A stretch of DNA of 64,000 nucleotides, counting the filler, from Stramenopiles sp. TOSAG23-6 (lineage: Eukaryota): assembly GCA_900128565.1 (NCBI GenBank). It is 8 parts of 8 records of this genome, joined end to end, with 100 filler letters (N's around TTAATTAATTAA, not from the genome) between each part and the next. Parts side by side here need not be neighbours in the genome. Positions count along the whole stretch, not along the records: positions 16,195 to 24,186 come from LT636490.1; positions 24,287 to 32,267 come from LT636491.1; positions 32,368 to 40,310 come from LT636493.1; positions 40,411 to 48,352 come from LT636494.1; positions 48,453 to 56,388 come from LT636495.1; positions 56,489 to 64,000 come from LT636556.1; 2 more parts are not named here. The stretch is one strand, 5' to 3'. A model generated the notes under the pieces. It saw only the letters and a program-made list of their open reading frames with translations, did not search any database and had not been told where the DNA came from. The translations under genes were made by a program, and so were the position numbers. Of this stretch, positions 19,686 to 59,400 are shown piece after piece (position 1 is the first letter of the stretch; every line of letters begins with the position of its first letter).

Positions 19686-21040
19686 TTAATTATCTGAATC
19701 ATCACTTAGTAAATCAGCAATTAAATCTTCTTCACTATTTTTCGTCATTTCTTTCTCCGATAATTTGTCCATATTATTATCCTTCACTATACTAATAATA
19801 GCAATATTTTTTGCAAAATATCCTTGAGAATTCCAGCCTTTCATTTGCATAGTACTAAAAGGTCCATATTTCGTGTTTTTTGTATCGGCTTTCCATCTGT
19901 ATTCCCAAAGCGTTTTGTCATTGCCAGATTTCAAAATGTCTAAATTTTGAAAAATATTTCAAAAAAAAAAATAAAAAAATTTGTTAGGTACAAAATTTCG
20001 TATGAAACCAAAAAAAAAAAATCGAATTTGAAAAAAAAATAAAACATACCTGAATTTGTTTGATACGTGTCATCTTGTGATGCAAAATAATTTTTCTTTG
20101 ACTCTAAAATATCAATTGAAAATTCATTTGATTTTGAGGAATTACGTTCTAAATGTTGAATTTCAGATTGAATTTGTTTTCTAGATAATTCATAAATATG
20201 AGAATATGTATTTTGGAAAAATATTTCAAAAAAAATCAAAAAAAAATTGTTAGGTACAAAATTTCGTACGAAAAAAAATATAGATAAAAAATTCAATTTT
20301 GAAAACAAACAACCACCTTCGGATAATAGTGAATCAGCTGCTTCTGTGACAGTATATAATGATTTCTTTGCTATTTCAGCCGCTTTTACTTGAACTTGTA
20401 GCGATTCATCATTCGTGTCTATTTTTTTGTTTTTTTTTTGTTTTTTTTGTTTTTTTTGTAGAGACTTTGTCGTACCTATTATTTTCCCCAATCTTTGTAA
20501 AGAGGTCAATGCAGTTTCTCCAGGCTTTAGTATGTTAAATAAGGATGTTAGACACAACAACACATCAATCGGGGGTTTAGATGCTTCTTGTTCACTCCGG
20601 CGTTGATCAATAGCGTCTTTTGCTCGCTTTGTCGCAGCGTATTTACTATTAATATCTCCTGACGCTTCCTCTTCGTCTGCTTCATCAAGCCATCCGTCAC
20701 GAACATTACTTTCTTTTTCACTCCACTGATAGGAACCGTCTTCTAAAAAGCGACCTTCACTCATTTCTTCTTTCAAATTGAATGGTGTCATTGCAACATT
20801 ATCTTCCCTTAGACCATCGAGCGTCTCATCATCGCTAACTTCACCATCTACTGACGTAATTATACCATTTTTAACTTGTTGAAGACTTTTACTATCGACC
20901 TCTGCAAACTGTACTTTTTTCTTCTTTTTTTGAGGTGCTTCAACATTTTGAATAGAGACACTTTTGACATTTTCGTCAAGCTTTGCACGGGATCTTTTCT
21001 TTAATCCCGTTTTTGCAAACAAATCCACTTTAGGATTCAT
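19686..21040 (-). CDS. CD2BP2: CD2BP2/Lin1 (U5-52K) GYF-domain protein; exons 21040-20311, 20205-20050, 19939-19686
   Basis: TPFNLKEEMSEGRF, DGWLD, LKPGET, and a C-terminal GYF domain WEYRW..YGPFSTMQMKGW..QGYF. Confidence 0.85.
19940..20049 (-). mobile_element. Repeat-family intron, GT-AG (110 nt)
   Basis: CAG|GTATGT...AAAATTTAG|AC; joins the GYF exon in frame. Confidence 0.85.
20206..20310 (-). mobile_element. Repeat-family intron, GT-AT (105 nt)
   Basis: TT|GTTTGT...AAAATACAT|AT; gives EGGYSHIYE. Confidence 0.75.
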
Positions 21041-21288
21041 TGTTCTTCGAACTATTCTGCACTATATAGTAGTGCATAGATTACGTAATCAATCATGGAG
21101 CACAACAAAATTCGCGTGTTTTTGGTTTGGAAAAAAAAAAATTCAGACTTTTTTCACTTTTTTTCGTGTTTTTGATTTCATTTGATCGGTTCATTTTTGA
21201 TTTTTTGATTTGATTGTGTCTCTCTCTCCTCCTCCTCCCTCTTTTATATAGCAGTGCTCCTTATATATTATATATAGTTGTAAAGAAA

Positions 21289-22440
21289 ATGAATGTCAAA
21301 GATGTTATTTCGTCACTTCTTTTTGTGATTATTTCATTGTTAGTTCTTATTGACACACTTGCAAAGTCAGTTGATGATGATGAATTGTTGGTCATAGATA
21401 TGGACGCTACTGCGTCCAAGAAATTGACTGAGCAACATATTCCAAATCAGCAACAAATTAAACATGAAAAGGAACCAAGTACTCCACCTCGTAATTTGAA
21501 TCAAATGTTTGGACAAAGTTTGCCTTATTTTGGTGGACCCGGTGGCCGATACTTTCCTCCTCCGCCACCACCACCACCAATGTACAATGAAGATGCGAAA
21601 AACGGTGAAATGGGAGAGATTGGAGCCCAAGCGTCTCCGTCTCAATTTGCTTCACGTTTCGTTCATGATCACTTTACTCCTCCAATACCTCCAACATCAA
21701 ATACTGAGCCAATGCTCCCAAAACATCCATCTATGTTTCATCCTCATCAACATGCGATGAAGATACATCCATCATCGGATATGTATCATGGATATTCACA
21801 AACATTTGCACAACCTGGAGTTCCTGGTGTATACGGAGAAATGAGAAATCCTAGTAGTAGTAATTCTGTCAGTTCTCAAGATGATTTGACAAAACAAAAA
21901 GATAAACAAAACCAGACACATGGAGCTCACCCCGGAATGTATCATCATAATATATATCAACCACCACCACAACAACAACAACCTCCACAAATGCCAGGAT
22001 ATAATCATAATATATATCATCAACAACCTCCACAAATGCCAGGATATCACCATCATCATAACATGTATCAACAACCTCCACAAATGCCAGGATATCATCA
22101 CCATCATGATATATATCAACAACAACCTCCACAAATGCCAGGATATCATCATCATAATATGTATCAACAACAACAAAAATATCAACCTTACCTTGGTGTT
22201 ATGCCATTAGAGCGTGATAGGGAACATATACGTTTTGTTTTTATCATTCATTTCAAAAAAATTTCAAAAAAATTTCAAAAAAAAAAAATATTTTTTTTTT
22301 ATAGTAAATTTTGTACCTAACAAATTTCATTTTTTTTATATGTTTTTCTAATATATATCAAGGCATTAAATAATCGAATTGCAGAATTACAAGAAGCTTT
22401 GACAAAAGCAGGTGGTCATGTAAACACTATGTCAAAATAG
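21289..22440 (+). CDS. Secreted/anchored Pro-Gln-His-rich repeat protein; exons 21289-22227 and 22357-22440
   Basis: N-terminal hydrophobic segment, PPQMPGYHHH repeats, and a short coiled-coil terminal exon in frame after intron removal. Confidence 0.7.
22228..22356 (+). mobile_element. Repeat-family intron, probably AT-AT (alternative GT-AT register 22232-22354)
   Basis: CAT|ATACGTTTT...TTTTGTACCTAAC...CTAATATAT|ATC. Confidence 0.65.
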
Positions 22441-22755
22441 TCAAAAATAACAAAAAATTGAGGAAATATAATACACAAGATATTTTTATTAGGGTTAGGG
22501 TTCGGTATTTTTTGTCATTTGAATGAATGTTGATCATTCTATTTTTTTTTACATGATATAAAACAAATAGTACAGAATAAAATTTAAAAAAAATATGTAG
22601 TATCTTTAGATATACATATATTTGTTGTGTTTATCTTTATATGTTATACGATGTACAAAAATAACAATATATTTAAAAAAGAAAAATAATATGCACAAAA
22701 TGTTTATTCAATTCATTCATCAAAAAAAACAAATCTAAATGTCAATGTTCAAAAA

Positions 22756-34445: not shown

Positions 34446-34805
34446 GCAAACGAATAACACAGATATGAAAGAGTTATAATATCTCTCTACAGAGGTATAC
34501 TTTGTAAGAATTGCGAACGAACGTAATTACGTAGCTGCTGTTTCTTCTTGTGTGTGTGTAGACAGTTGTGACTGTGGACGACATGACTCGTGCCTCTCGA
34601 GTCGTCGACTCGACTCGTACGTTCGACACGAAAATCCGAAATTTCAAATTTCAAGGCCTTTTTGCTATTGTCAATTTTTGTTGATGTCGCCCGCGGATCA
34701 GTCGTCAATTTGGAAATGTGCGTTAGAATTGTTCGTCTCATTTGTGCTGGTCTGACAATATTTTAGAATATAATAAGTGTCATTTGAATTGAAATAAAGT
34801 ATATT

Positions 34806-35468
34806 ATGTCTCCCCCTTTAAGTACATCAAGTCACTCACAGCAAGGTGGGTCAAAGAAGAAAAAGAACAATTCCAAGGGGGGTAAAAATCTTGGCGGAAA
34901 AACCTTGACAAAGATTGCCCCTGGGTGTACTTGGGGCTATGCCTCCGAAATTATTTTTATGTATCCGATAGCTGAAATTATTGTTGGGCCCTTGCGGAAA
35001 GTTGGCTTTACACCCAATAGCATCAGTGTTCTAGGGCTTGTATGTTCAGCGTATGTAGCATGGTTAATTACCCAGGGTCGCTTCTATTCTGCAATATTTT
35101 GGTTTGCACTGCACGGAGTTCTAGATGCGGCGGATGGTACCATGGCTAGACGCTTCAATATGTGTTCGCCATTTGGTGCTGCATTAGATATGAATTGCGA
35201 TCTTTTATCAGGGGTACTTTTGGTATTAGGTTCACTGTATATTTCTTGGGGAATCATACCCCTTATTTGTTTTGAACTGGTATATACAGTGATAGCTGCG
35301 TCTTCGTCTGTTCTATTTGACAAGCGGGATAAGTCGGTCAAATATGTCGAGCACCTATCATGGATGGAGTATTTGGGTCTTATTTCATATGAAAATATTA
35401 CATACATTGTCACTATTTTGTTGTTATTTATTAACTATGTCGTAAATTCGCAGAAGCAAGATTTGTAG
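34806..35468 (+). CDS. CDP-alcohol phosphatidyltransferase family protein (paralog 1)
   Basis: TPNSIS and the signature DAADGTMARR....PFGAALDMNCD. Confidence 0.9.
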   Translation: MSPPLSTSSHSQQGGSKKKKNNSKGGKNLGGKTLTKIAPGCTWGYASEIIFMYPIAEIIVGPLRKVGFTPNSISVLGLVCSAYVAWLITQGRFYSAIFWFALHGVLDAADGTMARRFNMCSPFGAALDMNCDLLSGVLLVLGSLYISWGIIPLICFELVYTVIAASSSVLFDKRDKSVKYVEHLSWMEYLGLISYENITYIVTILLLFINYVVNSQKQDL

Positions 35469-35915
35469 AAATATTTTTTTTTCATAGAAAATTCTAACCT
35501 TAACCCTAATCAGGTCAAAAAAAATCTATTAATGTAAATAAAACTTTTGTATTTTTTTTGTCTATAATGTAGATTGTTTTATCTTTGTTGTTTTAAGTTT
35601 ATGCTATACAAAATATGTATTTTTCAGTTCACAAAATCACGAAATCCTGGATAAAATACACTAGATTTTGACCAACTTTAATAAATGAGGATCGACCGGT
35701 CATGACAGACGCAAAGCTAGTGATAGTCGATGCCATTCATCTATTGTTTTATATAATGAAAGCTTATTATTCAACAAGACCTTGCGCAACAAATTATACA
35801 CAAGTATTTACATCTTCAACCTCTTTTTATAACGGCTTGGACTATATAGTATATAGTCTCAAATTAACACGAAATCCAAGAGGAATTGAGAGTTGCCGCC
35901 ATAATTTAGTAAAAT

Positions 35916-35989
35916 GTACCCACTGAACCTTATTTTTTTTCGTACGAAATTTTGTACATAACGAAGTTGCTGGCTATTAATCAGTACAT
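35916..35989 (+). mobile_element. Degenerate family copy in intergenic/5' UTR sequence
   Basis: AT GTAC...TTTTCGTACGAAATTTTGTACATAAC...GTAC AT. Confidence 0.5.
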
Positions 35990-36094
35990 TTTTTTTCTGT
36001 AAGTGTGTGTGGTTCGAACACAACTACAAGGTACTCTTATTGCTGTTTTGAGATTGCGTACTCAACGAAACATCTATACACCACAATTATTAGT

Positions 36095-36748
36095 ATGATA
36101 CCATCCCAATATAAAGATCTATTGGCTAAGTACTTGCGTTTGAGTAATGTACCAAAAAGTAGCTCGCCTAAGAAGTCGCCTGAGAATTTGACAGAGATTT
36201 CCGGTGGTTGCACTTGGTCTTTTGCTTCGGAATATGTTTTTATGTATCCTATGGCCGAGTTAATCGTTGGCCCTTTGCGTTCAATAGGGCTTACACCAAA
36301 CGTTATCAGTGTTATTGGATTGTTTAACTCCTTGTATGTTTCTTACTTGTTAATTATTCGTTATTTCTATTCAGCAATATTTTGGTTCGCTATACACGGT
36401 GTACTTGATGCGGCGGATGGCACAATGGCACGACGTTTTAATATGTGTTCGCCATTTGGTGCGGCATTGGATATGAATTGCGACCTTATATCAGGAGTTG
36501 CAATGACTTTAGCAATTTTTTATGCCGCTTGGGGTGAAGAGGGATTCATTTCATTTATATTTTTTTTTGCAGTATACAATAGCATTCTGGCTATATCAGC
36601 TTTGGCTTATGATAGGCGTGACAAATCTATCAAATATGTAGAGCATTTATCACTATTAGAGTATGTTGGACTAATACAGTATGAAAATATTACATACATT
36701 GTCACTGTCTTGATTATAGCTATTAAATTATGGTTTGATTTTGTTTAA
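36095..36748 (+). CDS. CDP-alcohol phosphatidyltransferase family protein (paralog 2)
   Basis: Same signature; tandem paralog of 34806-35468. Confidence 0.9.
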   Translation: MIPSQYKDLLAKYLRLSNVPKSSSPKKSPENLTEISGGCTWSFASEYVFMYPMAELIVGPLRSIGLTPNVISVIGLFNSLYVSYLLIIRYFYSAIFWFAIHGVLDAADGTMARRFNMCSPFGAALDMNCDLISGVAMTLAIFYAAWGEEGFISFIFFFAVYNSILAISALAYDRRDKSIKYVEHLSLLEYVGLIQYENITYIVTVLIIAIKLWFDFV

Positions 36749-39122: not shown

Positions 39123-39279
39123 GGTTTCCCCCCTTTTAGTGTATAGTCATTTATTATAAACAATAAAAGTTTTGAAAAAGTCTCTAAAATTGGATTGATT
39201 TGAGATTGGCTATCCGCCAAGAGTTAGGTAGCTATAACTGTAAAAAAAAGTTGACAAGAAATATCTTAATTTGAAGTGT

Positions 39280-39517: not shown

Positions 39518-39550
39518 TAATAGTACGTAGGTAGTAGGATAGTTTCTTTT

Positions 39551-40252
39551 TTATTCAGACGATTTTGATAAAGATTTCGTTTCAGCCTTTGCTCGCTCAT
39601 ACCCCTGAGTAACGAAATCATAAACTCTTTTTCTCTGTTGCAATTCTTCTTCAAGAAATGCAATTTGTTCTTCCTCGAGCTCTTCTTTTTCTTTTTGCAT
39701 TTGCTCGCGTTGTTTCTTCGTCATGAAATATTTTGAATAAACATTTTGTCCTTTTGTAGAAATCGTTTTTTTAGTTTTTTTAGTTGTTTTAGTTGTTTTA
39801 GTTTTTAGTTTTTTTATAGCACTTCCCGTTTTTTGAAAAATATTTTGAAATTGACGATTCTTTCTAAATTTTCTATTTTGAGAATATTTTGGTATAGAGT
39901 TTGATAGCAAGGGAATAGTTGCTTCAGTTGGTTGGGTCCGGCTATTTTCACAGTTATTTGAAGACAACACGAAATCGTGTCTTCTGTGAAGAACATCACT
40001 AGAAACCTTTACTAATGTATTTTGGGAAAATATTTCAAAAAAAAATCGTTAGGTACAAAATTTCGTATGAAAAAAAAATCGGATTTGAAAAAAAATAAAA
40101 CATACACACATTGCGATAGTATCTAAATGCAATAACTGACTTAAAATACGTTTTACATATGATATATGCACACCAGATGATTCTGATATTTGTCGTACAA
40201 TGCGTTTTCCATCTATATGAGGTAATAATTTTTGCAGTGTCAAGTCCGCATC
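39551..40252 (-). CDS. NPRL2/Npr2-like exon (40252-40106) plus a downstream exon of uncertain linkage
   Basis: DLTLQKLLPHIDGKRIVRQIS resembles NPRL2; the consensus donor does not keep frame with the next exon. Confidence 0.5.
40015..40105 (-). mobile_element. Repeat-family intron, GT-AT (frame is kept only with a donor at 40107)
   Basis: Full consensus present. Confidence 0.7.
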
Positions 40253-40310
40253 ATATATTTTGGAAAAATATTTCAAAAAAAATTTAAAAAAATTTGTTAG
40301 GTACAAAATT
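40253..40310 (-). mobile_element. Repeat-family intron, 3' half (AT end), truncated
   Basis: GTACCTAAC...CCAAAATATAT|GAT. Confidence 0.75.
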
Positions 40311-40410
40311 NNNNNNNNNNNNNNNNNNNNNNNNNNNNNNNNNNNNNNNNNNNNTTAATTAATTAANNNNNNNNNNNNNNNNNNNNNNNNNNNNNNNNNN
40401 NNNNNNNNNN
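40311..40410. other. Artificial contig spacer
   Basis: N44-TTAATTAATTAA-N44. Confidence 0.98.
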
Positions 40411-40495
40411 AAAAAATCTAAAAAAAATTGTTAGGTACAAAATTACGTACGAAAAAAAAATCGATTTTTTTGTTAAAAAAAAAAATAAAACATAC
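40411..40495 (-). mobile_element. Repeat-family intron, 5' part, truncated
   Basis: GAC|GTATGTTTT...GTACCTAAC. Confidence 0.75.
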
Positions 40496-42466
40496 GTCCC
40501 ACTCTTCATGAATTCGCTGATTTTTACCTTTTCGTTTTCTCTTTTTTAATTTCTCTTCTTGAGCCTTTTTTAACGCATCGGCCTTTAATTTTTCTCTTTT
40601 TGCATTTTCTCTGGCCCACGTACCATTATTTTGTTTCTCTCTTTTTCGTGCAATCATTTTTTCTAAACGAAGTTTTCTTTGTTTTTCACGAATTTTATCT
40701 AGATAACAAATTGTATCTATATTTATTTCACATTCAGTAAATTCAGATACATCAATTTTTTTCCCAGTTAATTCTGGCATTTTTGGTAATCGTAATAGAG
40801 CGAAAGCATTGGCTAATCGACCTAAATTTAGACTAGAGAATTTAAATATGTATTTTAGAAAAATATTTCAAAAAAAATCTAAAAAAAACTTGTTAGGTAC
40901 AAATTTTCGTATGAAAAATAAATTCAATTTCAAATTTAAAAAAAAATAAAAAAATAAAACATACATATGTCGGCATTCATGTTTCTTATACGATTGAACA
41001 AATGAGACAAAAGCACGAGTTCCTTTTTCCATTAAATCTCGATCTTTTATTGCCGCTTTGCGAATATATGACCAAATTTTTCCAGTTTGACTTTTTGTAT
41101 TTTTTTCAGAATCGTTTAAATCTTTTGAATTTTTTGAATTTTTGGATTTCCATTGAACAATTGGAACTTTTCGAGTTGTAAGAAATGGTATATATTCCAT
41201 TTCTTTATGCAATAAAAATACCAATGCTTTCCCATTACGTCCAGCACGAGCAGTACGTCCTACTCTATGAACAAAAAAGTCAGGATCTTGTGGAGGATCA
41301 AATTGAATAATCCAATCTACATCAGGGACGTCAAGACCTCGAGCTGCAACATCCGTACTCATTAAGATTGCAGGTCGATTTGAACATTGTAAGAATTTAT
41401 CTAAAGTTCCTGAGCGACGTTTTGGTACCATACGACCATGTAAAGAATATAACGCAACCTTTCCTACAATTTCTCTTGATCTGTTTTGAGATTGTTTTGA
41501 TTTTTTTGATTTTTTTGATTTTTGAACATTTTTATGCACAGATCCAAATAATTCAGGCATCACTGATTGAAGACCTCGGTAGAAATAATCCACAGCAGCA
41601 CAAGTAGAAAAAAATATAATAGCTTTCTTATTTGAATCTTGTGTCAATACTTCTGATTTGATAAAATCAATAAAATAATCCAATTTGTTATCTGGACGAC
41701 AATTAATATAAAAGTTTTGAAGTGCACTTGGTGTTTTCTGACTCGATCTATGAGCAGAAGTCTTTACTTTCAGACAAATATTTACAGGGTTTCGAAGTCC
41801 TGCACGAGCAAGAGCAACAACACCCTTTGTCTGTGTAGCAGAGAACAGACCTGTACGGCGTTGTTTTGGTAAAATTGTGAGTAAATCAGTAACTGTTTGG
41901 TGAAAACCCAAGTCTAACAAAACGTCAGCTTCATCCAAAACTAAAACTTCCAATTCTTTGACACTTATTGGAGCTTCATCACGTTGAAGTACATCAAGCA
42001 AACGACCTGGTGTTCCAATTAATACAGCAGCACCATTCTCTTTGACCTCATGGAAACTAGAACGAATATCTGTGCCACCAACCATTAGAGTAGCTGATAG
42101 TTGGGAACATACCTGTTTGAAAACACCATACGTCTGACGTGCTAGCTCTCGTGTGGGAGATACTATAATTACACCTACTTCATGCTTTTTCAGAGGTGTA
42201 GTACGTCTCTTTAATATTTCAATAGCCGGTAAAACAAATGCCAGCGTCTTTCCTGAACCAGTACAGGCTTCGACTGCAACATCTTTGTGTGTAAGAAAAA
42301 GAGGAATTGTTGTAGCTTGAACTGGCGTCATGTGTGTAAACCCTAAAGCGTCAACTGCAGCTAGGGTGCTTTCTGATATTGCTGGAATACAAGCATCAAA
42401 GCGAAATCGTTGCTTAGGATGTGTTCGTTTTGCCAACGGATTGGCATTTGCATCAGCAGATGCCAT
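40496..42466 (-). CDS. DDX55: DEAD-box RNA helicase DDX55/Spb4; exons 42466-40965 and 40847-40496, 3' truncated
   Basis: TGSGKT, DEAD, SAT and HRVGRTAR; splicing restores HECRHIFKFSSLNLGRLANAFALLRLPKMPEL. Confidence 0.93.
40848..40964 (-). mobile_element. Repeat-family intron, GT-AT (117 nt)
   Basis: AT|GTATGT...AAAATACAT|A; restores DDX55 motif spacing. Confidence 0.85.
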
Positions 42467-44201: not shown

Positions 44202-45250
44202 ATGTCACCAATTACAGTTCGCTCCGTTGCACGTATGTTTGGAGGTTTAGTAAAGCAATGTACTCATGACTCAACGTCTACCCGCACTGCTATGAACTTT
44301 ACAGTCTTTGTTCCCCCCCAAGCAAGTGAAAGTGTTCGCGTCCCTGTTTTGTATTATTTATCAGGATTAACTTGTACAGACGCAAATGTAAATGAAAAAT
44401 CGGGTGCACAACGGTATGCAGCAGAGCATGGGATTGCATTGGTTATGCCTGATACAAGTCCTCGCGGGCACCCACCTATTGCAGGTGAAGATGATTCATA
44501 TGACTTTGGTACAGGTGCTGGATTCTATGTGAATGCTACCACTCCAAACTATGCTGATAATTATAATATGTATGATTACGTTACCACAGAACTACCTGAA
44601 CTTATACAAGCTGAATTCCCTGTATCTAAGAGTTCTTCTATATTTGGTCATAGTATGGGAGGACATGGCGCTCTAGTATGCGCTTTAAAGAACCCAGGAA
44701 TGTACGTTTTTTTTNCAATTTTTTATCTTTTTTTTTTCGTACGAAATTTCGTACCTAACGAATTTTACAAAAAAAAATTTCACAATATATGTACAAATCT
44801 GTGTCTGCTTTTTCACCCATTTGTAATCCAACTCAATGCCCGTGGGGTGAGAAAGCTTTTAATGGTTATTTAGGTTCTGTTGATGCAGGGTTATCATATG
44901 ATGCGTCTGAACTAATGAAGAGTTATAATGGTCCCGAATTGCATTTATTAATAGATCAAGGATCTGATGATCAATTCTTACATGTACGTTTTTTTAGGGT
45001 TAGGGTTTTTATATATATATATTTTTTTTTTCGTACGAAATTTTGTACCTAATAAATGTAAAATTTTTGATATATTTTTTCAAAATTTCATGATCAATTA
45101 AAACCAGAAACTTTAAAGGCATCTTGTGCAGAAGTTCAACAACCACTGAATTTGAGGATTCATGATGGTTATGATCATAGTTATTATTTTATTGCGTCGT
45201 TTATGGAGGATCATATTCAACATCATGCGAAATATTTGAATAAACAATAA
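44202..45250 (+). CDS. ESD: S-formylglutathione hydrolase (esterase D); exons 44202-44701, 44791-44983, 45092-45250
   Basis: [38 protein letters not shown] and GYDHSYYF after splicing. Confidence 0.95.
44702..44790 (+). mobile_element. Repeat-family intron, GT-AT (89 nt)
   Basis: AT|GTACGT...CACAATATAT|GTAC; no AG anywhere in the intron. Confidence 0.85.
44984..45091 (+). mobile_element. Repeat-family intron, GT-AT (108 nt)
   Basis: CAT|GTACGT...AAAATTTCAT|GAT. Confidence 0.85.
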
Positions 45251-45556
45251 AAAGTTCATTTTTTTTTATTTTTTTTATCTCTAATAAAAAACACGAAATT
45301 TTTTATGAAATTAATAAATATTATTTTTTTAAAATTTATGTATATATCTTACTTTTTTTTATGAAATTAATAAATATAATTTTTTGAAAGACTTTGAAGA
45401 ATCCAAATGAAAAGTACTTGAAATAAAAAGAATTGAAAAGAACATTCCAATTTTTAATTTAGGTGAGTGTCATCCTCCATCATATATATATAATAATATA
45501 TTGTAGTACACATTTCGGCTTGTCAAAAAATCTGAAAAACAAATAAACTACTCGAA

Positions 45557-47965: not shown

Positions 47966-48221
47966 TCACAGCACCCACGAAATCCGGGCCTATTCTAGGG
48001 TTAGGGTTTCGTGGGTGATTACTGATTAGAGTCGAAGTTTTGAACATTTTGATTATTTTTGGACAGCAATGCTACTATATAGTATTGAAGAGAGAATTTG
48101 GATATTGTAAAAAACTTAAGAAGCCAAATGTCTACATTTCAAAAATAAATAAGAAAAACTAAAAATATGTCATATTGTTCAGATAAAACTTTATTTATAA
48201 ATTTCATGCATAACTAGTAAC

Positions 48222-48261
<40 letters not shown>

Positions 48262-48271
48262 TTTTTTACCA

Positions 48272-48303
<32 letters not shown>

Positions 48304-48352
48304 CCATCCAAATTTTTTTCCCAAACTTTTTTTTTTTTTTTTTGAAATATTT

Positions 48353-48452
48353 NNNNNNNNNNNNNNNNNNNNNNNNNNNNNNNNNNNNNNNNNNNNTTAA
48401 TTAATTAANNNNNNNNNNNNNNNNNNNNNNNNNNNNNNNNNNNNNNNNNNNN
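48353..48452. other. Artificial contig spacer
   Basis: N44-TTAATTAATTAA-N44. Confidence 0.98.
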
Positions 48453-48517
48453 TCGTTAGGTACAAAATTTCGTACGAAAAATAAATTCGAAATTGAAAAA
48501 AATAAAATAAAAGATAC
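48453..48517 (-). mobile_element. Repeat-family intron, 5' part, truncated
   Basis: AT|GTATCTTTT...TTCGTACGAAATTTTGTACCTAAC. Confidence 0.75.
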
Positions 48518-49587
48518 ATGATTCTCGTATTTTGTTTGGTAATTCATCAAAAGAGCATTCGCTAATATCAATATCACATGACTTTTGAAGATCTCTTCTA
48601 ATTCTGGGTTGATCCCAGGCTTTTTTGTCAACTTCATGTAGAGAGACAGCAAGATTTTTAATCTCTGTTTCATTCTTCAAAGTTGTGTCTTTCAATGGTA
48701 TCATAGATTTTAAGAGAGGATTATATCCAAAATGTATAACTCTTGCAGCAATTTGTAAAAGTCCAAATATTGTGAAAAATATTTTTAGTAAAAATTTACT
48801 AAAAATTTGTTAGGTACAAAATGTCGTACGAAAAAAAAAAAGAAATGTAATGTTGAAATCGTACGAGAGCTTTAGGTAAGACCAGAGTAACCCCAATAGA
48901 TTCAAAATTTAAATGCCTTGGTCGAAACCCCTTCGAACCTAAGTTTACCCACATACAAAATTTAATGGATTCAGTAGCTTCTGTTATTCGCGCTTCAGTT
49001 TTTCCCTTTGCATATTTATTAGGATAAGTTAGGAGGTTGCCCGTGGCTCGATCAATTTTTGAAAGAATGAGGTCGTGTGTTTTATTAGTATATTCTTGAA
49101 AAGTTTTTATTCGAACCGTATCAGAGAAATTAATGGCATTTGTCAGCTGTACTTGAATATCCTTTGCAAAGCAATATGCATTATCACACTTTTCGAGAAC
49201 TTTTGATAAATCACTTTCTTCATCGTTGGTCCAGGCTGCAAGGAATTTGTTGATATCAGGCTCCCTTGACGTTTCTGGAATTGAACCACAAGCTATAAAA
49301 CGTAACCACTCTGCTCTGTCCTCTTTAGTAGCTACACTCTCTTGAAGAGACTGTCTTGCATAAGATTCAACCGTAGCATATTCTTCAAACTCTTCAGATA
49401 GTCGAACAAGTTCTTCTTGGCGAGCTTTGGCTTCTTCTTCAAGTCTCTTCGCTTCAGCTTCAGCTTTAGCTTTTTCATCTGCTGCTTTAGCTTCAGCTAT
49501 AGCCTTTGCTTCTGCGGCCTTTTCTTCAGCTTCAATCCTTGCTTCTTCTGCAAGTTCTTCTGGTGTCTTCTTCTTCTTTTTAGCCAT
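48518..49587 (-). CDS. DNAI7: CASC1/DNAI7 (IC97)-like axonemal protein; exons 49587-48865 and 48764-48518, 3' truncated
   Basis: K/E-rich N-terminus, EWLRFIACGSIP, FCMWVNL and LPKALGLLQIAARV after splicing. Confidence 0.7.
48765..48864 (-). mobile_element. Repeat-family intron, GT-TT (100 nt)
   Basis: CTC|GTACGA...CACAATATTT|GGA; frame restored. Confidence 0.72.
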
Positions 49588-49890
49588 GTCTACTTTCACT
49601 TAGAAAGTGAATAAAGTATGTGATTGTAAAAATGATACAGAAAGGATCTTTTCTACGTAATGCCTATAGTAAGGTAAGGTGTAACGTTTTTCTTTAGTCA
49701 GTTGTTTTTCGTCTTTTTTCGTGTTGTTGTTTGACCAGCACATTTTTTTGCGCCGCTTTTTGCACTAGCCTCTTTGGAGTATAAAAAAGAAACAATTATT
49801 GCTCCGTCTACTTTGAGAAAGTGTCAACATTTCTTACTTTGTCAAGTATTTTCCCTTAGGGTAGCATTTGTACATTATCGAGTAGTATAA

Positions 49891-50637: not shown

Positions 50638-50880
50638 TGTAGTATTTAATAGAATATCCCGGAGAATAAATAATCTTTAAATTTATTTTTCCTTATAAGC
50701 AGAGTCACTCAAATTCTCTTTTTTCAAAAACATTGTAGAACACTGGTTTGTTTGTATTGGGAGATTCCAAGCCATTTTTTCGTACTTACTCGGAGCAATT
50801 AGTACACTATTTCATATCACAAACTAAAGTAAAGAACTCTTGAACATTTCAAATTATATCTAGACAATTTACTACACATT

Positions 50881-51900: not shown

Positions 51901-52278
51901 TCTCTATTGAAAATGACGAAGAATATTTCCTCCAGTTCGACAATCTTCTAATAAGTTGGGGAAAATATGACTTCCTAGCTAAAGTAATTCAGAAATGGCT
52001 GGTGTATTCTTGGTAAATAGATGAAAGGGGTGTAGTGTAGTGCTGTTACAGTCAAAATTAGCTTACACTGATAATAAATGAAATAATAAATGAAATAATT
52101 CATCCATGGGAAGAATTTGAAATAATTTCATTTTCAAAAAATTTTAATTTTAAATTTCAAATTTCGTGGATTTCGTGTGTTCTCGACCTCGTGTCACTTA
52201 TCAGTATTCGCTTGTTGAAGTGTAAGAACTCAATTTTTTAGCAGGTACTATAGCGAATTAGTCGCAACTATATCTACA

Positions 52279-53172
52279 ATGTTCTTTGCGTGTACATCAA
52301 GAGCTATACGGATACATGCATTCGGTACATTTCGAGGATTTGGAGCTCTGGCTCAACCACGTCAAGTTTTGAAAAAGGTAGAACCTCGCCCAATCGTAGC
52401 TGTGCCATTATCTGTACCAACCTCTGATGCCAGACCAACAAGACTACTTGCACTAAACACAATTTCAGATAATCCAGGTGCTAGAAAATCTGCCAAACGT
52501 GTAGGTAGAGGAATAGGTTCCGGTAGAGGTAAGACATGTGGTCGAGGTCATAAGGGTCAAGGTCAACGTAACAGACGTGCCAAACGTCCTGGCTTTGAAG
52601 GAGGCCAAATGTCGTTAATTAAACGAACACCAAAACGGGGTTTTAACCAGACCTTCTTTGCCAAGCCAATGAACGAGCTTAACATAAACACGTTACAACG
52701 ATTTATTGATGAAGGTAGAATCGATACTTCTAAGCCTATAACAATGAAGGAACTATATGAATGTAATATAGTAGGAAAGATTAAGTATGGTGTGAAACTT
52801 TTGGCTGGCACACGTGACGAAGTGGGGAAGTTAAACACTTCTATCACCATTGAGGTTTCGAAAGCAAGTCAGAGTGCTATAAAGGCTGTTGAAAATGCAG
52901 GCGGTCGTATTGTGTGTGCATATTACAATGATCTTGGTATTAGAGCATTGACCCGACCAGATAAATTTTTGGCAAAAGGTAAACAAATTCCAAAACGGGC
53001 TAGGCCCAAGCCAAAAATTATGCCATATTATACTTCTTTTCGTAATCGAGGCTATCTTTCTCCAGAAATAATGTTGACTGAACAGCCTTTTTTTCCAGAG
53101 GGTGAATATGGTTGTCCTAGAGAAATGAATCAAAAACTGTACCCAAATTTGGAAAAAACAAAAGAAAAATAA
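52279..53172 (+). CDS. MRPL15: Mitochondrial ribosomal protein uL15m
   Basis: RVGRGIGSGRGKTCGRGHKGQ and GFEGGQ, with a presequence-like N-terminus. Confidence 0.92.
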   Translation: MFFACTSRAIRIHAFGTFRGFGALAQPRQVLKKVEPRPIVAVPLSVPTSDARPTRLLALNTISDNPGARKSAKRVGRGIGSGRGKTCGRGHKGQGQRNRRAKRPGFEGGQMSLIKRTPKRGFNQTFFAKPMNELNINTLQRFIDEGRIDTSKPITMKELYECNIVGKIKYGVKLLAGTRDEVGKLNTSITIEVSKASQSAIKAVENAGGRIVCAYYNDLGIRALTRPDKFLAKGKQIPKRARPKPKIMPYYTSFRNRGYLSPEIMLTEQPFFPEGEYGCPREMNQKLYPNLEKTKEK

Positions 53173-53459
53173 ATATTAATTAGGAACTTTCTTGTTAGCA
53201 AATTGTTGAGATAAAAGAATTGATTACGTTTCTATATAAAACTAGTTTTATTCGATTGAAGTTTTATTCACAACTGTCTATTATTTTAATCTAATATTTT
53301 ATCTAGTACAGGGCTTATCTCGCTTATATCGGGCATACGAGACAGCAATAAAAATAATCTTCAGCCAGAAAATTTTGCGAAATGCAAATGCATATCTTAA
53401 ACATATGCAGTCTAGTTGTTTCTCTAAATACCATTGCTATACACTATCGAAAAAGAAGG

Positions 53460-53882
53460 TTATTGTCCTTCATCCATGTTGTTCATTTCAGTTTTGCGAG
53501 TTCGGTTGACTGGTACGTACACCTCTTTAGTTTTTCCAGCAGCTGCGTCAGATTCAGCCTGAGTGAACGCTTTCGTGCGCATACGTTTCAAAGTTCGTTT
53601 GTATTCTTTAGTCCTCATATGTGTATCAAGTGTTTTCTGGTTGATAAAATAACGATTTGTGGCTAAAGCATAAAACTGGCCGCCACCTGGAAGGTCTTCG
53701 TCAAACGGTAATGGGCTAGGGGCAATATTCTTCTTCTCATCTTCGTCATTCTTCTTCAACTCCTTATTGATCTGATCATGATCCTTGCCATAATGACGCA
53801 ATTTATAGCTCCGTCTATATGATTTGTTTTTGGCCCGATGACCCTTGTTACCGCCTTTACGTTTTCCATTTGTACCCCCCAT
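53460..53882 (-). CDS. ZNF593: ZNF593/Bud20 ribosome biogenesis factor
   Basis: KDHDQI, DEDLPGGGQFY..RYF and FTQAESDAAAG. Confidence 0.85.
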   Translation of the reverse strand: MGGTNGKRKGGNKGHRAKNKSYRRSYKLRHYGKDHDQINKELKKNDEDEKKNIAPSPLPFDEDLPGGGQFYALATNRYFINQKTLDTHMRTKEYKRTLKRMRTKAFTQAESDAAAGKTKEVYVPVNRTRKTEMNNMDEGQ

Positions 53883-54398
53883 TATTATTATTGATGAAAT
53901 AAGTGGATTAGACCAAGGCAAACAAGGGAGACCAAAGAACGATGACAGAGCTGAATGAATTTTTTTTCCAAAAACACGAAATACACGAAAAAGGGATCGA
54001 TCTCAGATCTCATAGGTCGATGTTCAACCAAATTATTATACTTATTAAGAAAATTGTCTAGCCTAGACTCTGACAACACAGAGCCAAAATACACTATCGA
54101 ATGTTTAGTGAAGAAGACAAATCCATAGTATGATACAAATAGCTGCAGTAAGTATTCACCAGTAGTAGAATGTAGTATGAATAGTTGATAATGCAAGTCG
54201 GTGGCAAGTTGACAGATGAGAAATGTTTGGGTAGTTTAACACTTTGATTTACATTATCTCTCGACCAAATTAGTCATGATCTATTAAGTTTCTTGATATA
54301 CTTTAACGAGCTGCTCTCGTCCAGCTAAATAAATAGACACCAAGAAATAAGAAAAAAGTATAACCAGCATACAGTCAATGGAGGTTATTTATAAAAAA

Positions 54399-54710
54399 CT
54401 AAAGAACAGGTTCTTCCTGTTGGTTAAATGGGTTCGCAATTTCTTCCATGCCATCAACTGGACACACCGCCATAACAGTGGTACCGCGGCATACACACAA
54501 TCCGAGCTTACGCGTTTTTTTTGTGATACGATATTCATCTTCTGGGTCTCGGATGTATTCGACGCATTCATCGAGAACCAAGTTAACTAGTTGGTCGAAA
54601 CCCTTAAGTAATCCTGTCAACTCTCTACCACCCTGAAACTTGACGCGGACTTCTTTATCAATATGCTTTCCCAAATCTAAAATAGAATTCTTTGTTTTAC
54701 GGGTGGACAT
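54399..54710 (-). CDS. LSM7: U6 snRNA-associated Sm-like protein LSm7
   Basis: SILDLGKHIDK..VKFQGGRE..G.LKGFDQLVNLVLD..RKLGLCVCRGT. Confidence 0.95.
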   Translation of the reverse strand: MSTRKTKNSILDLGKHIDKEVRVKFQGGRELTGLLKGFDQLVNLVLDECVEYIRDPEDEYRITKKTRKLGLCVCRGTTVMAVCPVDGMEEIANPFNQQEEPVL

Positions 54711-55185
54711 TTTTATAATCTTTAATCCACTATTATTGGTCGTGGTCCTATCGACTAACAACAAAGACGTAAATAATTACGTAGTAGCAGAGAGCGATGT
54801 GTGATGCGTGTTGGAGTCAGAGAGAAAAACACGAAATCCCAAATCGGGCCGGACGTTTCTTTAAAAATAGTTTTTCAGTTCCCCGCCATTCAGTCCTTAC
54901 CGCCAAAAATGTCATCGAAGCTTCTACGAAGCTTCTTCTCCTTCGTACTGGTACACGGGCTCTCAACTCCTCCCACTGAAGCACGATGTCCAACAATAAT
55001 AATTCTGATTTCCATGAAGATGACTCTGCAAGTTCATCAATTGCCGAGACGGTAAGTTAAATTTAATGAAATATTTTTATGAATCACATTTCATCTTTTT
55101 TCCTTCGTTAAAATAACTTTTGATTATTTGAACAATGTCACTGACCTCGTTACCCCGTTCCTTTATTTACACAATATAGTGCGAT

Positions 55186-56271
55186 ATGCTATCGACGTCT
55201 CCTTTTGATGAGGCACCGGTTTATCGTAGTCTTGGTGGGTTAGGGAGTGGTTTAACAAAACCAACCTTGATTCGCAATTGTAATTTTGAAGAAGAACCAG
55301 TGTATCGTAGTCTTGGCGGCATTTCAGTGGAGAGTTTTCAGACAATGGGTACAAACCTTCCCTTTGAAAACTCTAATCGTTTTGGACATTTTGAGCATGA
55401 TACTAATTTTAGCGATCCATTTATGATGAATGGACCATTAACAAAAATTCCAGTGAAGGTTGAAAAGAAAAAGAACCTACCACCGACTTTACCAGCGTTT
55501 CCTTATCAACTCTCCCGTACAAGTTTTCCGGTAATTGTGACGAACAAACTTGTAGATAAGCTTTCTAGCATTCTTGATTCCATTCCAGGTACCAAATTTA
55601 CTTTCAATGATAGTAAATGGAAGTTTAAAGGATCTTTTACTTGTGGTCGCTGGTGCGAACAAGTAAAATTTAACATGCGCATCTTTCGGACCACTGAAAA
55701 TTCTTTCGTCCTTGAAATAATTCACCGCCACGGTTGCAATATGGTCTGGTGTGAGTTTTACAAGATTTTCTCGTCCCATTGTGTGACATCTGGAATAACT
55801 ATTTCGGATATTAGTGGACCTTCCATTCTTAACAATGAACAGGTTATGAAACCAATCGACAGGCATCGTCGGGTACGTCACCAAAACCACGTTCATTCTC
55901 GCTTTATAGAAAGCTCTCTAAATGTCACGGAGCCTCGTGTTTTGCTACAGACAATAACCAACATGATGACATCTCCTGAATCTCAGGTCAAACTTGAAGC
56001 CTGGCGGACCCTTGCCCAATTAAGTGGGAAAGTTAGTAGCGTTAAAATTTTACTGAGTGCTCCATCTTTAGTAAAACAACTTTTTCGTATGGCTCCTGAT
56101 AATACTCACGAAACAAGACAAACATATAGATATGTCGCTACAACTATCGGAAACATTTCAGAGCATGCTTCGCTCAATGAAGTGGCAGATTTTTTAGTTT
56201 CTTCAACCCCCGAAATAGTTAATATTTTCCGCGGCAGTGTTGTTATTAGTCTCCTATTCTGCTCAATATGA
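55186..56271 (+). CDS. Hypothetical protein with a duplicated PVYRSL motif, KA1-like segment and ARM-like C-terminus
   Basis: 361-aa ORF; domain calls are by eye only. Confidence 0.55.
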   Translation: MLSTSPFDEAPVYRSLGGLGSGLTKPTLIRNCNFEEEPVYRSLGGISVESFQTMGTNLPFENSNRFGHFEHDTNFSDPFMMNGPLTKIPVKVEKKKNLPPTLPAFPYQLSRTSFPVIVTNKLVDKLSSILDSIPGTKFTFNDSKWKFKGSFTCGRWCEQVKFNMRIFRTTENSFVLEIIHRHGCNMVWCEFYKIFSSHCVTSGITISDISGPSILNNEQVMKPIDRHRRVRHQNHVHSRFIESSLNVTEPRVLLQTITNMMTSPESQVKLEAWRTLAQLSGKVSSVKILLSAPSLVKQLFRMAPDNTHETRQTYRYVATTIGNISEHASLNEVADFLVSSTPEIVNIFRGSVVISLLFCSI

Positions 56272-56388
56272 CAAGGACTGGGGATCACACTATTATTTGA
56301 TGAAGTTGGAGCATATTCGCGTTCTACCCAGTCAGCTAGTCTTTGCTTTTGGGATTCTATAAGACACAGTATTTCATTATATGTTAGA

Positions 56389-56488
56389 NNNNNNNNNNNN
56401 NNNNNNNNNNNNNNNNNNNNNNNNNNNNNNNNTTAATTAATTAANNNNNNNNNNNNNNNNNNNNNNNNNNNNNNNNNNNNNNNNNNNN
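56389..56488. other. Artificial contig spacer
   Basis: N44-TTAATTAATTAA-N44. Confidence 0.98.
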
Positions 56489-59400
56489 CACATTTCGTGT
56501 CTCAGGAGTTGTATTTTCATTTCTTGTTTGAAAATATTTTTTTTAATTTTTTTGTTAGGTACAAAATTTCGTATGAAAATTTAAAATTTTCATTTCTTGT
56601 TTGAAAATATTTTTTTTAAATTTTTTTGTTAGGTACAAAATTTCGTATGAAAATTTAAAATTTTGTAATGATTAAAAATGTACATTGATTGTAGATCCTT
56701 CGGCACCTAATGCAAATGTATTGTAGAAAAATATTTCAAAAAAAAACTAAAAAAAATCGTTAGGTACAAAATTTCGTACGAAAAAAAATTCATACAAAAA
56801 AAAAATAAAACATACATATTTGATACTGCTTTTGCTTTTATACACTGATCATATTTATAACAACGAAAAGCATGGAATGCATATGCATATTGTCGTTGTG
56901 CTACGTACCATAATTTTGAATGTAAGAATTTCGCAGCTGCTTCAAGATTTCCATATTTTGTCTGCGTATTCATAGATACATTGCGAGCAGTTTTGTACCA
57001 AAAGTGTAAGGCTCGTCCTAATTTCTTCTGTATCATTCCTCTCAGGGCAACGGAGAAAAGAAGAGCAGCTATTTGACGTGTATATTCACAATTTCTATAA
57101 TCCATAGTCACCATTTGCCAAATATCAAAGGTATGTGACACAATTCTTTTATTATAATGTCTCAATCTACTGAAAATTGATTTCAAAGCGATTTTCTTTT
57201 CAATTTTTACAAGACGATTTTGTTTTGTTACCTGACACCAATGTTGATAAAAACAATAAACAGTTTTATGGAGAAGTCTATTTAAGATTTTAGGAATGAT
57301 GACAGATGAAAGTATTGTGAAAAATATTCTTTTTTTTTTTTTTAAATTTGTTAGGTACAAAATTTCGTATGAAAAAAAAATTTGAAATTCATGATGAAAA
57401 CGTACAATGTGTCGACGTTTCAAATATTCATTTTTCATTAATTCTGAACCTAATTTCCACTGTGCAAATCCTTGGCTTTTGCTTACTAGAGACATGCGAC
57501 GTACTATGAGATTCATTTTATGAATTTGTGCATTATACATGTATTTTGGGAAAATATTTTTTTTTTTTACCGAAAATAAAAAAAAAATGTTAGGTACAAA
57601 ATTTACTATGAAAAAAAAAATTCGAAATTCAATTTTGAAAACGTACAATCCCATAGATAATATCTGATCTCTCCAGACATTAAAAGCTAAACGTTTTTTA
57701 TTCAAAACTTTGCGCTGACTTAATGTCTTTATACAAGTAACAGACCAACAATATTTTAATACATGTATTTTGGAAAAATATTTCAAAAAAAAAACTAAAA
57801 AATTTGTTAGGTACAAAATTTTCAAAAAAAAAAAACTTCGATTTTTTTTTTACCGAAAAAAAAAAAAATAAAACATACATCGTGTTCTTTGTATGCATTT
57901 ATAAGTTCTGATTCATTTTCACATTTTTTCTGAACTTCTATTTTATTTTTCCATTTATACAATGAAACTTTTAATGTACAACAACGTTTTAAATATGCAG
58001 TTTGGTGAATGTTAATCAGTGTGAGGAATGTGAAATATTTCAGTGCGTTACTTTGACGAGATAATGCTACACTTAATGCGGAATTTTTTTTCTTTTCCTG
58101 TAAAACAGCAAATTTACACATTGATTTTGATTTTTCTTTACACTCTAAAAGCATTTGAGAATATTTGTTCTTTAGTTCTTCTAAGGCATTTCGTGTGTTA
58201 GCACTAGACAATTCACGTTCTTTGTGTAAAGTAACTCTCATATTACGAAGCTCAGCCCTTTGATGTTCATATGCTACAGCATATGATATAATGTAAGAAA
58301 ATATGTCAAGTTTCACATGTATGAGGTACAGAATTTTCTATGGAATTCTGAAAAATTGAGTTTGTACCAAATTTCGTACGTAACAAACATGCTGAAAACG
58401 TACATGGTGCTCCAAGTGCAATAGCTCCATTCGTTTCAATTGATAATTCTTTACTCCATAATTTCATTTTGAGAGCAATTGATTTTAATACATCTAATTC
58501 TTTACTATTTTCATCTGAATCTAAATGAACATTTGGACTATTTTCATCTGAACTTGGATGTATTGCAGAAAATATATATTTTTTTTAGTAAAACAAAAAA
58601 TCGTTAGGTACAGAATTTCGTACAAACAAAAAAATATTTGAAATGTATCATTGAAACAAACATGTATTGCAGAAAGAACAGCATTTTCTGATACTATTTT
58701 AGTATTTTTATGTATTTGATGATAAATCATATTTGTAATTTCATTTACTCTAGTCTCTAGTGAAGCTAAATGATGAATACTAGCTTCTCGTTTTGCATCA
58801 AACTTTGTCTTTTGGATAATTTGTACTACATCGTTTTGGTGTTGTTTCTCGAGTGAACGTATAGACGTCTCCTTTTCTGTAATTGCTTCAAGTTTTTCGC
58901 GTCGTCTGTTTTGTGAAAAAAATATTGTTTTTTCAATAGAACAAATTCGTTAGGTATGAAAAAAAATTTTTGAAAAAAAAAAAATTCAAAAAATTCAAAA
59001 AATTCAAAAAATTCAAAAAAAAAAAAATAAATATAAAATGAATGATGAAAACAAACAATCGACTTTCATATTCTTCCTCCAAATGTTCGCATTTTTTCAG
59101 AGATTCTTTCTTCAAATCTTGAAAAGTGACATGTAATGAATCAATTTCTTTAGAATGTTGAGACATCGTATTTTTCATACGCTCTATAGAAATAATCCTT
59201 TCTTCTTCATGCACTACGTATTTTGGAAAAATATTTCAAATTATTTTTTGTTAGGTACAAAATTTTTATAAAAAAAAAATTCATATAAAAAAAAATAAAA
59301 CATACACTTTTAAAGAAGTAACTAATTTTTCCTGTGCGTCTTTGATTCGTGTGCATTCTATTTGATGTTCCTGTACATATATTGTGAAATTTTTTTTTAA

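Follow-up and report, generated by a model that had tools for sequence, protein, structure and literature searches.

Does a family of short repeats scattered through the protein-coding genes of an uncultured stramenopile consist of spliced introns and, if so, how did most of them come to end in AT rather than in the canonical AG? We addressed this question in a 64,000-nucleotide stretch of Stramenopiles sp. TOSAG23-6 (GenBank assembly GCA_900128565.1), here called the window, where an earlier note had proposed a DNA element resembling a miniature inverted-repeat transposable element (MITE) that is spliced out together with one copy of an AT-preferring 2-bp duplication. The reading frames and homologies of the interrupted genes indicate that the repeats very probably form a family of introners spliced with GT-AT ends. 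The whole explanation, in which this introner family resides in a MAST-3-like stramenopile and owes its terminal bases to a 2-bp duplication, is one that we favor with modest confidence.

The repeat family itself is real, as the earlier note had claimed. The 12-nt palindrome TTTCGTACGAAA occurs 25 times at no more than one mismatch (12 of them exact) against 0.30 occurrences expected, and the 18-nt core TTGTTAGGTACAAAATTT occurs 33 times at no more than three mismatches against 0.38 expected. Curation yielded 26 complete copies of 89–175 nt, where the first count had been 25, and about eight further copies truncated by contig or window ends. Read on the strand of the host gene (carets mark splice junctions), the 5′ half of a copy runs exon..NN^GTA(T/C)GTTTT, a T-rich spacer and TTTC(G/A)TACGAAATTTTGTACCTAAC, and the 3′ half comprises a T/A-rich spacer followed by (G)AAATATTTTTC(C/A)(A/C)AAATAC NN^exon. 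Each copy holds a GTAYGTTTT 5′ end, the branch-site box TGTACCTAAC, and a 3′ block ending in ATAC plus two bases. Two types of 5′ end, linked by intermediates, define a GTATG subfamily (GTATGTTTTATTTT, 11 copies) and a GTACG subfamily (GTACGTTTTCA-like, 15 copies).

Every copy, whether complete or truncated, is sense-oriented relative to its gene. The best copy pairs are 94%, 91%, 89%, and 87% identical, compared with a maximum of 62% in shuffled controls; the 94% match is full-length and spans different genes (copies 30 and 31, numbered as in the table below), the 91% match connects different contigs, and spacer segments outside the splice signals are also common to copies in different genes. 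The family therefore displays what marks introners as repeated introns, namely many near-identical introns at unrelated positions in different genes. Because 9–10 of the 14 contig ends (contigs 3–8) fall within an intron-family copy, a genome-wide, high-copy repeat that breaks the assembly is suggested. When the core pattern was searched in public contig collections, 3 metagenome, 1 genome, and 28 viral loci were returned; 0 of these 32 carried the family 5′ site or palindrome, and we therefore regard all of them as chance matches. As a separate observation, the one-mismatch variants of the palindrome, listed on the sense strand, are mostly TTTCATACGAAA and never TTTCGTATGAAA. Copies of either 5′ type carry the TTTCATACGAAA variant, a hint that copies have exchanged sequence or that one CpG has changed recurrently.

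Excision from the G of GTAYG through two bases past ATAC joins long open reading frames (ORFs) in most copies. When phases were assigned independently from the codon usage of 60-nt flanks, 20 of 25 copies agreed with this cut, compared with one-third by chance; among the remaining five, copy 31 is consistent by ORF length, copies 21 and 22 have a neighboring exon that is too short, and copies 5 and 13 disagree. In the minus-strand gene at 60755–56489, splicing 11 introns by this rule gives 1002 codons with 0 stops, while the other frames contain 89 and 99, and when 3′ offsets between −6 and +9 were scanned by dynamic programming, only offset class 0 mod 3 remained feasible at 7 of the 11 introns. 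Three junctions fit homologues to the residue, those of copies 17 and 18 in the S-formylglutathione hydrolase gene and of copy 16 in a Spb4-type helicase gene. At copy 17, exon 1 ends at G164 and exon 2 begins at Y166 of human ESD (3fcx), with the split codon AT^G supplying the residue between, and across copy 18 the residue numbering is contiguous in 3i6y, 6jzl, 7yvt, and 3ls2. Hydrolase relatives of 73–80% identity, one of them a transcript-derived 'merc' entry, are gapless over both junctions and have G-M-Y in common. Numbering is likewise contiguous across copy 16 in 8i9z_CW and 7nac_x, with weak alignments downstream (E = 0.0034 and 0.67). Given the restored frames and the junctions that fit homologues, we conclude that these are very probably true introns with a non-AG 3′ end. 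The claim that removing the element plus its 3′ dinucleotide leaves the protein unchanged is borne out, in that either the frame or the homologous protein is restored.

Among the 26 complete copies, 20 introns end in AT, two in AG, two in TT, one in GT, and one, uncertain, in AA, so that the canonical ending is found in only 2 of 26. The branch box lies 32–51 nt from the 3′ end, and in six copies an AG situated between the two is passed over. Conventional GT/GC-AG boundaries were tried and rejected: they would need 2–10 codons deleted at inconsistent places, they are impossible for six introns (copies 9, 11, 17, 20, 23, and 24 offer zero in-frame, stop-free GT/GC..AG pairs within −15 to +15 and −60 to +30 nt), and homology contradicts them at copies 17 and 18, where no boundary register permitted by the direct repeats is GT-AG. 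We also rejected AT...AC introns, in which the upstream dinucleotide would be removed and the 3′ one kept, because they produce an in-frame TGA at copy 11 (CT^ATGA) and leave both ends variable; the description in which the intron is GT...NN and the exon keeps its last two bases is preferred for these reasons. Copy 11 is the sole mismatched copy at which this can be decided, and its upstream dinucleotide is kept and its 3′ one removed, in agreement with the earlier note.

Two copies speak against a uniform cut two bases past ATAC. At copy 5, the end given by this rule is out of frame and a length of 129 nt is in frame, making it either an AT..AT intron or a defective copy. At copy 13, the preceding exon ends in phase 0, and the frames need GTGTATG..ACAT (40015–40107, 93 nt) or GTATG..ATACA (90 nt). 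Sequence from contig 8, which carries the 11-intron gene, is present in eight sequencing runs, among them two metatranscriptomes and three seawater DNA runs. No same-species, transcript-derived protein for the contig-8 gene part was returned by a word search or found among 1.84 billion representatives, and a protein search with the hydrolase for same-species transcripts gave only relatives, up to 80% identity.

In the explanation that we favor, the copies would be short non-autonomous repeats, sense-oriented in protein-coding exons and removed from RNA as introns. Each would supply its own 5′ splice site (GTATGT/GTACGT), branch box, and T-rich 3′ block ending in ATAC, and the 3′ cut would fall two bases past ATAC at the observed distance from the branch box, with nearer AGs ignored. 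Splicing would take out the element and the 3′ dinucleotide and leave the exon's own last two bases, keeping the coding sequence uninterrupted. Of these elements of the explanation, the existence of the family, its orientation, the precise lengths removed, and the non-AG ends are what the analysis shows. The terminal bases would have begun as a 2-bp target-site duplication (TSD) from a DNA-level insertion, mostly into AT within a weak C-AT-G context. If the splicing machinery favors an A-T intron end, older copies at other dinucleotides could have drifted to AT and lost their match; under this insertion-then-selection scheme, TC/TT at copy 20 would represent a half-way state. An element that itself ends in AT and prefers AT^ sites fits the data almost as well. 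More broadly, we suggest tentatively that the 3′ splice rule of this lineage has moved away from AG, and that nearly its whole intron set is one recent introner family with GT...AT introns ending two bases past ATAC, upstream AGs ignored, and terminal bases that are the scar of a 2-bp duplication.

The evidence for a duplication lies in the agreement between the two dinucleotides. Of the 26 copies, 17 have the same last two bases in the upstream exon and in the intron (16 of 25 if the copy at 35916–35989, which resembles an untranslated region, UTR, is left out). The reported figure of 17 in 25 holds nearly unchanged, and the five non-AT intron ends listed with it become six (AG, AG, TT, TT, GT, and AA). 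Three of these six match, and the AG/AG (copy 3), TT/TT (copy 23), and GT/GT (copy 28) cases were all recovered in place on the minus strand. In permutations of the ends of 25 copies, the total number of matches had p = 0.0022 and three or more non-AT matches had p = 0.0054; permutation within subfamilies (26 copies) raised these values to p = 0.005 and p = 0.013, respectively. We scanned positions −6 to +6 following the method outlined in the available text of Gozashti et al. 2022 (PMC9860276). Only position −2 exceeded random pairing (19 versus 14.8 of 26, p = 0.0085); at position −1, the excess (20 versus 18.7 of 26, p = 0.19) is limited by the high T content there. Positions −6 to −3 and +1 to +3 were at chance, and +4 was marginal (p = 0.03, uncorrected). 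Matches occur in 9 of 11 copies of the young, least diverged GTATG subfamily versus 8 of 15 in the other, and mismatched copies are more diverged from the consensus than matched ones (0.226 versus 0.157; one-sided Mann-Whitney p = 0.019), which fits decay of an original duplication. The exon end is AT in 14 of 26 copies compared with a 9.1% background (p = 1e-8), and a mild context, with C before AT in 8 of 26 (p = 0.06) and G after the intron in 10 of 26 (p = 0.02), gives the palindromic C-AT-G.

Several counts weigh on the other side. Only 3 of the 11 non-AT exon ends match. Nine of 26 copies mismatch, and as the intron still ends in AT in six of those nine, AT acts like a component of the element itself or like a 3′ splice signal under selection, and not like a free duplicate. 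AT is commoner at the intron end (20 of 26) than at the exon end (14 of 26), and the terminal A (21 of 26) and T (23 of 26) look about as conserved as the adjoining ATAC. Copy 3, with its remodeled TTTAG beside a classical AG^GT, may reflect the ordinary splice consensus, and setting its AG/AG aside brings p to about 0.05 by hand estimate; the match statistic is, moreover, post hoc, computed on the same 26 copies that suggested it. These points suit a rival explanation in which the GT-AT introner family is the same and no duplication occurred. There, AT would be part of the element and serve as its own 3′ splice site, and insertion after AT (a proto-splice AT^G) could proceed, for example, through reverse splicing into a transcript that is then reverse-transcribed and recombined, leaving the non-AT matches to coincidence or consensus. 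This reading gains from the retention of AT in six of nine mismatches, from complete copies that are all sense and within transcribed regions, from an element that carries every splice signal, and from weak inverted ends with transposase not found in the window's ORFs. It must contend with non-AT matches that exceed random pairing (p = 0.005–0.013), with an excess confined to the two junction positions, and with the least diverged copies matching best. We consider it possible but rather unlikely.

That the terminal dinucleotide is a 2-bp TSD is plausible on thin evidence, and we regard the matter as evenly balanced. What stands of the original proposal is a locus-specific match beyond an AT consensus; the nine mismatches, six still ending in AT, run counter to it. 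The alternative raised alongside it, that AT^GT...AT^G is simply this organism's splice consensus, may hold and is compatible with a duplication. Two other duplications were examined and rejected: for a 3-nt duplication (CAT), position −3 matches below chance (6 versus 7.5), and a TA duplication in the other register would, by reasoning, cost six exon bases per insertion.

The MITE-like character proposed for the element was not supported within the window. Its inverted ends, GTAT(G)TTTT/AAAATAC, were recovered in the GTATG subfamily as 4+4 bases with a bulge, but in the GTACG subfamily they shrink to GTA/TAC, three bases, and neither reaches the minimum of about 10 bp for the terminal inverted repeats of MITEs. 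RNAalifold returned no terminal helix (consensus energy −0.13 kcal/mol), and copies folded one at a time were no more stable than their shuffled versions (z = −0.17, −0.41, −2.02, +0.71, and −0.81); for the three GTATG copies, the minimum-energy fold does contain an end helix. Within the 64 kb, of which about 17% lies outside ORFs of at least 100 codons, there are neither antisense copies nor any that are clearly intergenic, and the lone antisense core match, at 23525, has three mismatches, lies in an exon, and is without other family features. The window holds no long copy, each 5′ end either pairing with a 3′ block within 175 nt or being cut by a contig end, and the 41 ORFs scanned contain no transposase, integrase, or reverse-transcriptase domains. 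For a DNA element, the sense-only orientation is explicable through selection only. On the features tested, the family works like an introner and does not earn the MITE label.

Other explanations of the introns fare less well. A minor (U12-like) or altered spliceosome tolerating non-AG ends, compatible with either origin of the terminal bases, seems improbable. U12-type introns have the 5′ box [AG]TATCCTT and a branch box near the 3′ end, a combination that this family does not show. The CC of the 5′ box is absent (5′ end GTA[TC]GTTT), the branch-like box at 32–51 nt from the 3′ end lies beyond the short U12 spacing, GTATGT plus TACCTAAC resembles yeast-type U2 signals, and neither small nuclear RNA (snRNA) nor transfer RNA genes were found in the window. 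Some support comes from the 5′ end GTATGTTT, which shares 6 of 8 bases with the U12-type GTATCCTT, and from the listing of GT-AT among rare functional U12-type and U2-type introns in the available text of Sheth et al. 2006 (PMC1557818). Equally hard to sustain is the idea that these are ordinary non-mobile introns, alike through long, strict splice signals in an intron-poor genome. The most conserved blocks are indeed the 5′ site, branch box, and 3′ end, but non-signal spacers also recur in different genes, copies are up to 94% identical over their entire length and up to 91% identical across contigs, contig ends accumulate in copies as they do at high-copy repeats, and 11 copies occupy one gene with none in ORFs of 1052 and 1728 codons. 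DNA-level elimination between short direct repeats is scarcely credible: although short AT-rich coding inserts with a 2-nt direct repeat and inverted termini, whose excision with one repeat restores the gene, resemble the TA-bounded internal eliminated sequences of the ciliate Paramecium, strict sense orientation and full RNA splice signals are needless for DNA excision, the repeat is absent in 9 of 26 copies, and nuclear dualism is not known in stramenopiles.

The proposed GT-AT introner family can be set beside several systems already described. Huff, Zilberman, and Roy reportedly described introner elements in Micromonas pusilla and Aureococcus anophagefferens in 2016. The available text of two sources (PMC9860276, PMC11282704) treats target duplications that supply a splice site as established in Micromonas, Aureococcus, dinoflagellates, and many Tara genomes. 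As described there, Micromonas and Aureococcus introners are, as here, short non-autonomous genic repeats that carry one splice site and restore the mRNA exactly; their other splice site lies in the duplicated target bases, and families carrying the 5′ site and co-opting the 3′ site are known in Chrysochromulina sp. (Gozashti et al. 2022, PMC9860276). Their duplications measure 3–9 bp and give canonical AG or GY, whereas here 2 nt accompany a 3′ end of AT, inverted repetition at the termini is far weaker, and a duplication is less firmly supported.

A parallel in splicing behavior is offered by the MITE-derived introns of Fritillaria borealis (Henriet et al. 2019, as covered in the available text of PMC11282704), which combine terminal inverted repeats and TSDs with non-GT-AG ends, AG-AT being common, and a tolerant spliceosome. 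Their 5′ ends are non-canonical (AG-AC, AG-AT) with an exonic TAC before the intron, while the present family has a normal GTAYGT and deviates only at the 3′ end; Fritillaria is also a tunicate, and the host here a stramenopile protist. Amoebophrya likewise has repeated introns with inverted-repeat ends, direct repeats that overlap the boundaries, and non-GT-AG termini (Farhat et al. 2021, PMC7789003, available text). Its inverted repeats of 8–20 nt, direct repeats of 3–5 nt, and lack of a dominant dinucleotide pair contrast with the dominant GT-AT, 2-nt repeats, yeast-like 5′ and branch signals, and near absence of terminal pairing seen here. The nonconventional introns of euglenids share non-canonical borders and TSD-like junction repeats, and end pairing has been proposed for them; according to the same review (PMC11282704), they pair stably at their ends and are without a polypyrimidine tract or conventional signals, whereas the present family has a 5′ site, a branch box, and T-tracts, and its stable pairing is unsupported. 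Animal GT-AT introns have the same terminal dinucleotides and can be spliced, but they number in single digits, with seven U12-type cases tabulated in the available text of Sheth et al. 2006 (PMC1557818), against 20 of 26 introns in 64 kb here. We found no paper linking MAST-3 or stramenopiles to such introns, although the supplementary species tables of the introner surveys may list them. The available text of MAST single-cell papers held nothing on splice sites ('splice' zero times and 'intron' twice in PMC5778133, 'intron' zero times in PMC8163842). The present family is set apart by its host lineage, by a repeat of just 2 nt, and by the pairing of a canonical 5′ site and branch box with 3′ ends that are predominantly not AG.

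Table 1. Copies of the intron family in the window. Positions count along the whole 64,000 nucleotides; the fourth column gives the last two bases of the upstream exon / of the intron; carets mark splice junctions.
Feature	Position	Strand	Exon end/intron end	Remarks
Copy 1	16195–16281	−	TG/	5′ part only, cut by contig end
Intron 2	16770–16876	−	AT/AT	GTATG subfamily; frame-consistent, 402 + 184 codons open
Intron 3	19940–20049	−	AG/AG	..tcAG^GTATGT...ATTTAG^; 3′ block changed to AAAATTTAG; sole GTATG-subfamily copy with canonical GT..AG
Intron 4	20206–20310	−	TT/AT	GTTTG 5′ end; mismatch
Intron 5	22228–22356	+		starts ATACG, not GT; frames need 129 nt, AT..AT
Intron 6	22815–22929	−	AT/AT	glycosyltransferase-1 gene
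Intron 7	23231–23365	−	AT/AT	GTTCG 5′ end
Intron 9	23684–23807	−	GG/AT	diverged; mismatch; phase 0 on both sides; homology check found no solved relative of upstream exon
Truncated copy	32214–32267	−		3′ part, cut by contig end; ends ATACAT
Copy 10	32368–32433	−		5′ part only, cut by contig end
Intron 11	33683–33784	−	TC/AT	PPR gene; mismatch; flanking 247 + 439 codons open
Copy 12	35916–35989	+	AT/AT	short, diverged, UTR-like; stops upstream; precedes CDP-alcohol phosphatidyltransferase ORF
Intron 13	40015–40105	−	GT/AT	exception to model; junction would read TGT^TAG (stop)
Copy 14	40253–40310	−		only the 3′ part, truncated by contig end; final bases ATATAT; following exon in phase 0 with high coding score
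Copy 15	40411–40495	−	AC/	5′ part only
Intron 16	40848–40964	−	AT/AT	inside CTE_SPB4 domain of DEAD-box helicase
Intron 17	44702–44790	+	AT/AT	S-formylglutathione hydrolase; 6-nt direct repeat, ATGTAC
Intron 18	44984–45091	+	AT/AT	S-formylglutathione hydrolase; holds (TTAGGG)2
Copy 19	48453–48517	−	AT/	5′ part only
Intron 20	48765–48864	−	TC/TT	Casc1_N-domain gene; half match
Intron 21	56509–56683	−	AT/AA	3′ boundary uncertain, 20 nt from contig end
Intron 22	56716–56815	−	AT/AT	
Intron 23	57310–57405	−	TT/TT	96 nt; ..caTT^GTACGT...ATACTT^; only offset class 0 mod 3 feasible
Intron 24	57539–57646	−	TT/AT	mismatch
Intron 25	57763–57878	−	AT/AT	repeat ATGTAT
Intron 26	58283–58403	−	AT/AT	diverged
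Intron 27	58558–58661	−	AT/AT	
Intron X	58906–59056	−	TT/AG	diverged; canonical GT..AG, no match
Intron 28	59216–59305	−	GT/GT	..aaGT^GTATGT...ATACGT^; AG two bases beyond not frame-feasible
Intron 29	59377–59484	−	TC/AT	mismatch
Intron 30	59698–59789	−	AT/AT	starts GCATG (GC, not GT); 94% identical to intron 31
Intron 31	63658–63751	+	AT/AT	different gene from intron 30
Copy 32	63907–64000	+	AT/	cut by window end

Two of the copies stand out in their internal structure. A 74-nt tandem duplication in intron 21 (56513–56664, 2.1 copies, 98% match) gives it two palindrome/branch-site boxes. In intron 26, the central palindrome block is found inverted near the 5′ end, alongside a degenerate sense branch box, which suggests an internal rearrangement around the palindrome; the family alignment places the 3′ end of this intron 3 nt further upstream, also in frame.

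The window consists of eight contigs of 7997, 7997, 7992, 7981, 7943, 7942, 7936, and at least 7512 nt, joined by linkers of the form N44-TTAATTAATTAA-N44 at 7998–8097, 16095–16194, 24187–24286, 32268–32367, 40311–40410, 48353–48452, and 56389–56488. As the contigs stand in decreasing order of size, their adjacency is artificial and implies no genomic neighborhood. Contigs 1 and 2 (1–7997 and 8098–16094) are the same sequence, identical at 7996 of 7997 positions with scattered single Ns alike, leaving about 56 kb of unique DNA. The DNA is AT-rich (G+C 27–42%), uses the standard code, and encodes typical eukaryotic proteins, including a polycystin-like channel, a cyclic-nucleotide-gated channel, PPR and ankyrin proteins, a DEAD-box helicase, UCH, VPS28, NudC, and Casc1. 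The best match of a GDP-mannose epimerase ORF, 85% identical, bears a label that starts GSMAST32; this label, in place of a phylogenetic placement, points to a marine stramenopile of the MAST-3 group as the host.

Intron density across these genes is very uneven, with 11 copies in the one gene of about 1000 codons at 60755–56489 (−) and zero in the minus-strand ORFs at 27060–32243 (1728 codons) and 31–3186 (1052 codons). Tandem plus-strand ORFs at 34788–35465 and 35981–36745 both match the CDP-alcohol phosphatidyltransferase profile from its start and are likely paralogous genes; the short, diverged copy 12 sits just upstream of the second. Within an ankyrin-repeat gene, an 87-nt (29-codon) unit is repeated 7.8 times at 18577–19251 (+). 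The telomere-like dimer TTAGGGTTAGGG occurs 15 times at no more than one mismatch against 0.10 expected, three of these in the duplicate contig; examples lie at 4398–4466, 17126–17137, 22489–22500, 23070–23141, 25364–25375, 35498–35509, 44994–45005, and 47995–48006. Several occupy intergenic positions or lie close to the ends of ORFs, intron 18 contains one, and the dimer may be a promoter or other regulatory motif.

Together, these findings are of interest for intron gain and for splice-site recognition. Bursts of intron gain are at present best explained by introners, and spliceosomes that tolerate odd ends show how hosts accommodate introner invasions. If the explanation holds, the family would be a stramenopile counterpart of those in Fritillaria and Amoebophrya with only the 3′ rule changed, and its combination of ordinary 5′ site and branch box with 3′ ends other than AG would isolate site choice in the second splicing step. 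Gene-prediction programs that accept only GT-AG introns will split or wrongly join most genes in this uncultured and abundant group of marine grazers and parasites; a shifted 3′ rule, if the family is as we propose, might also account in part for the low numbers of genes reported in MAST-3 single-cell assemblies.

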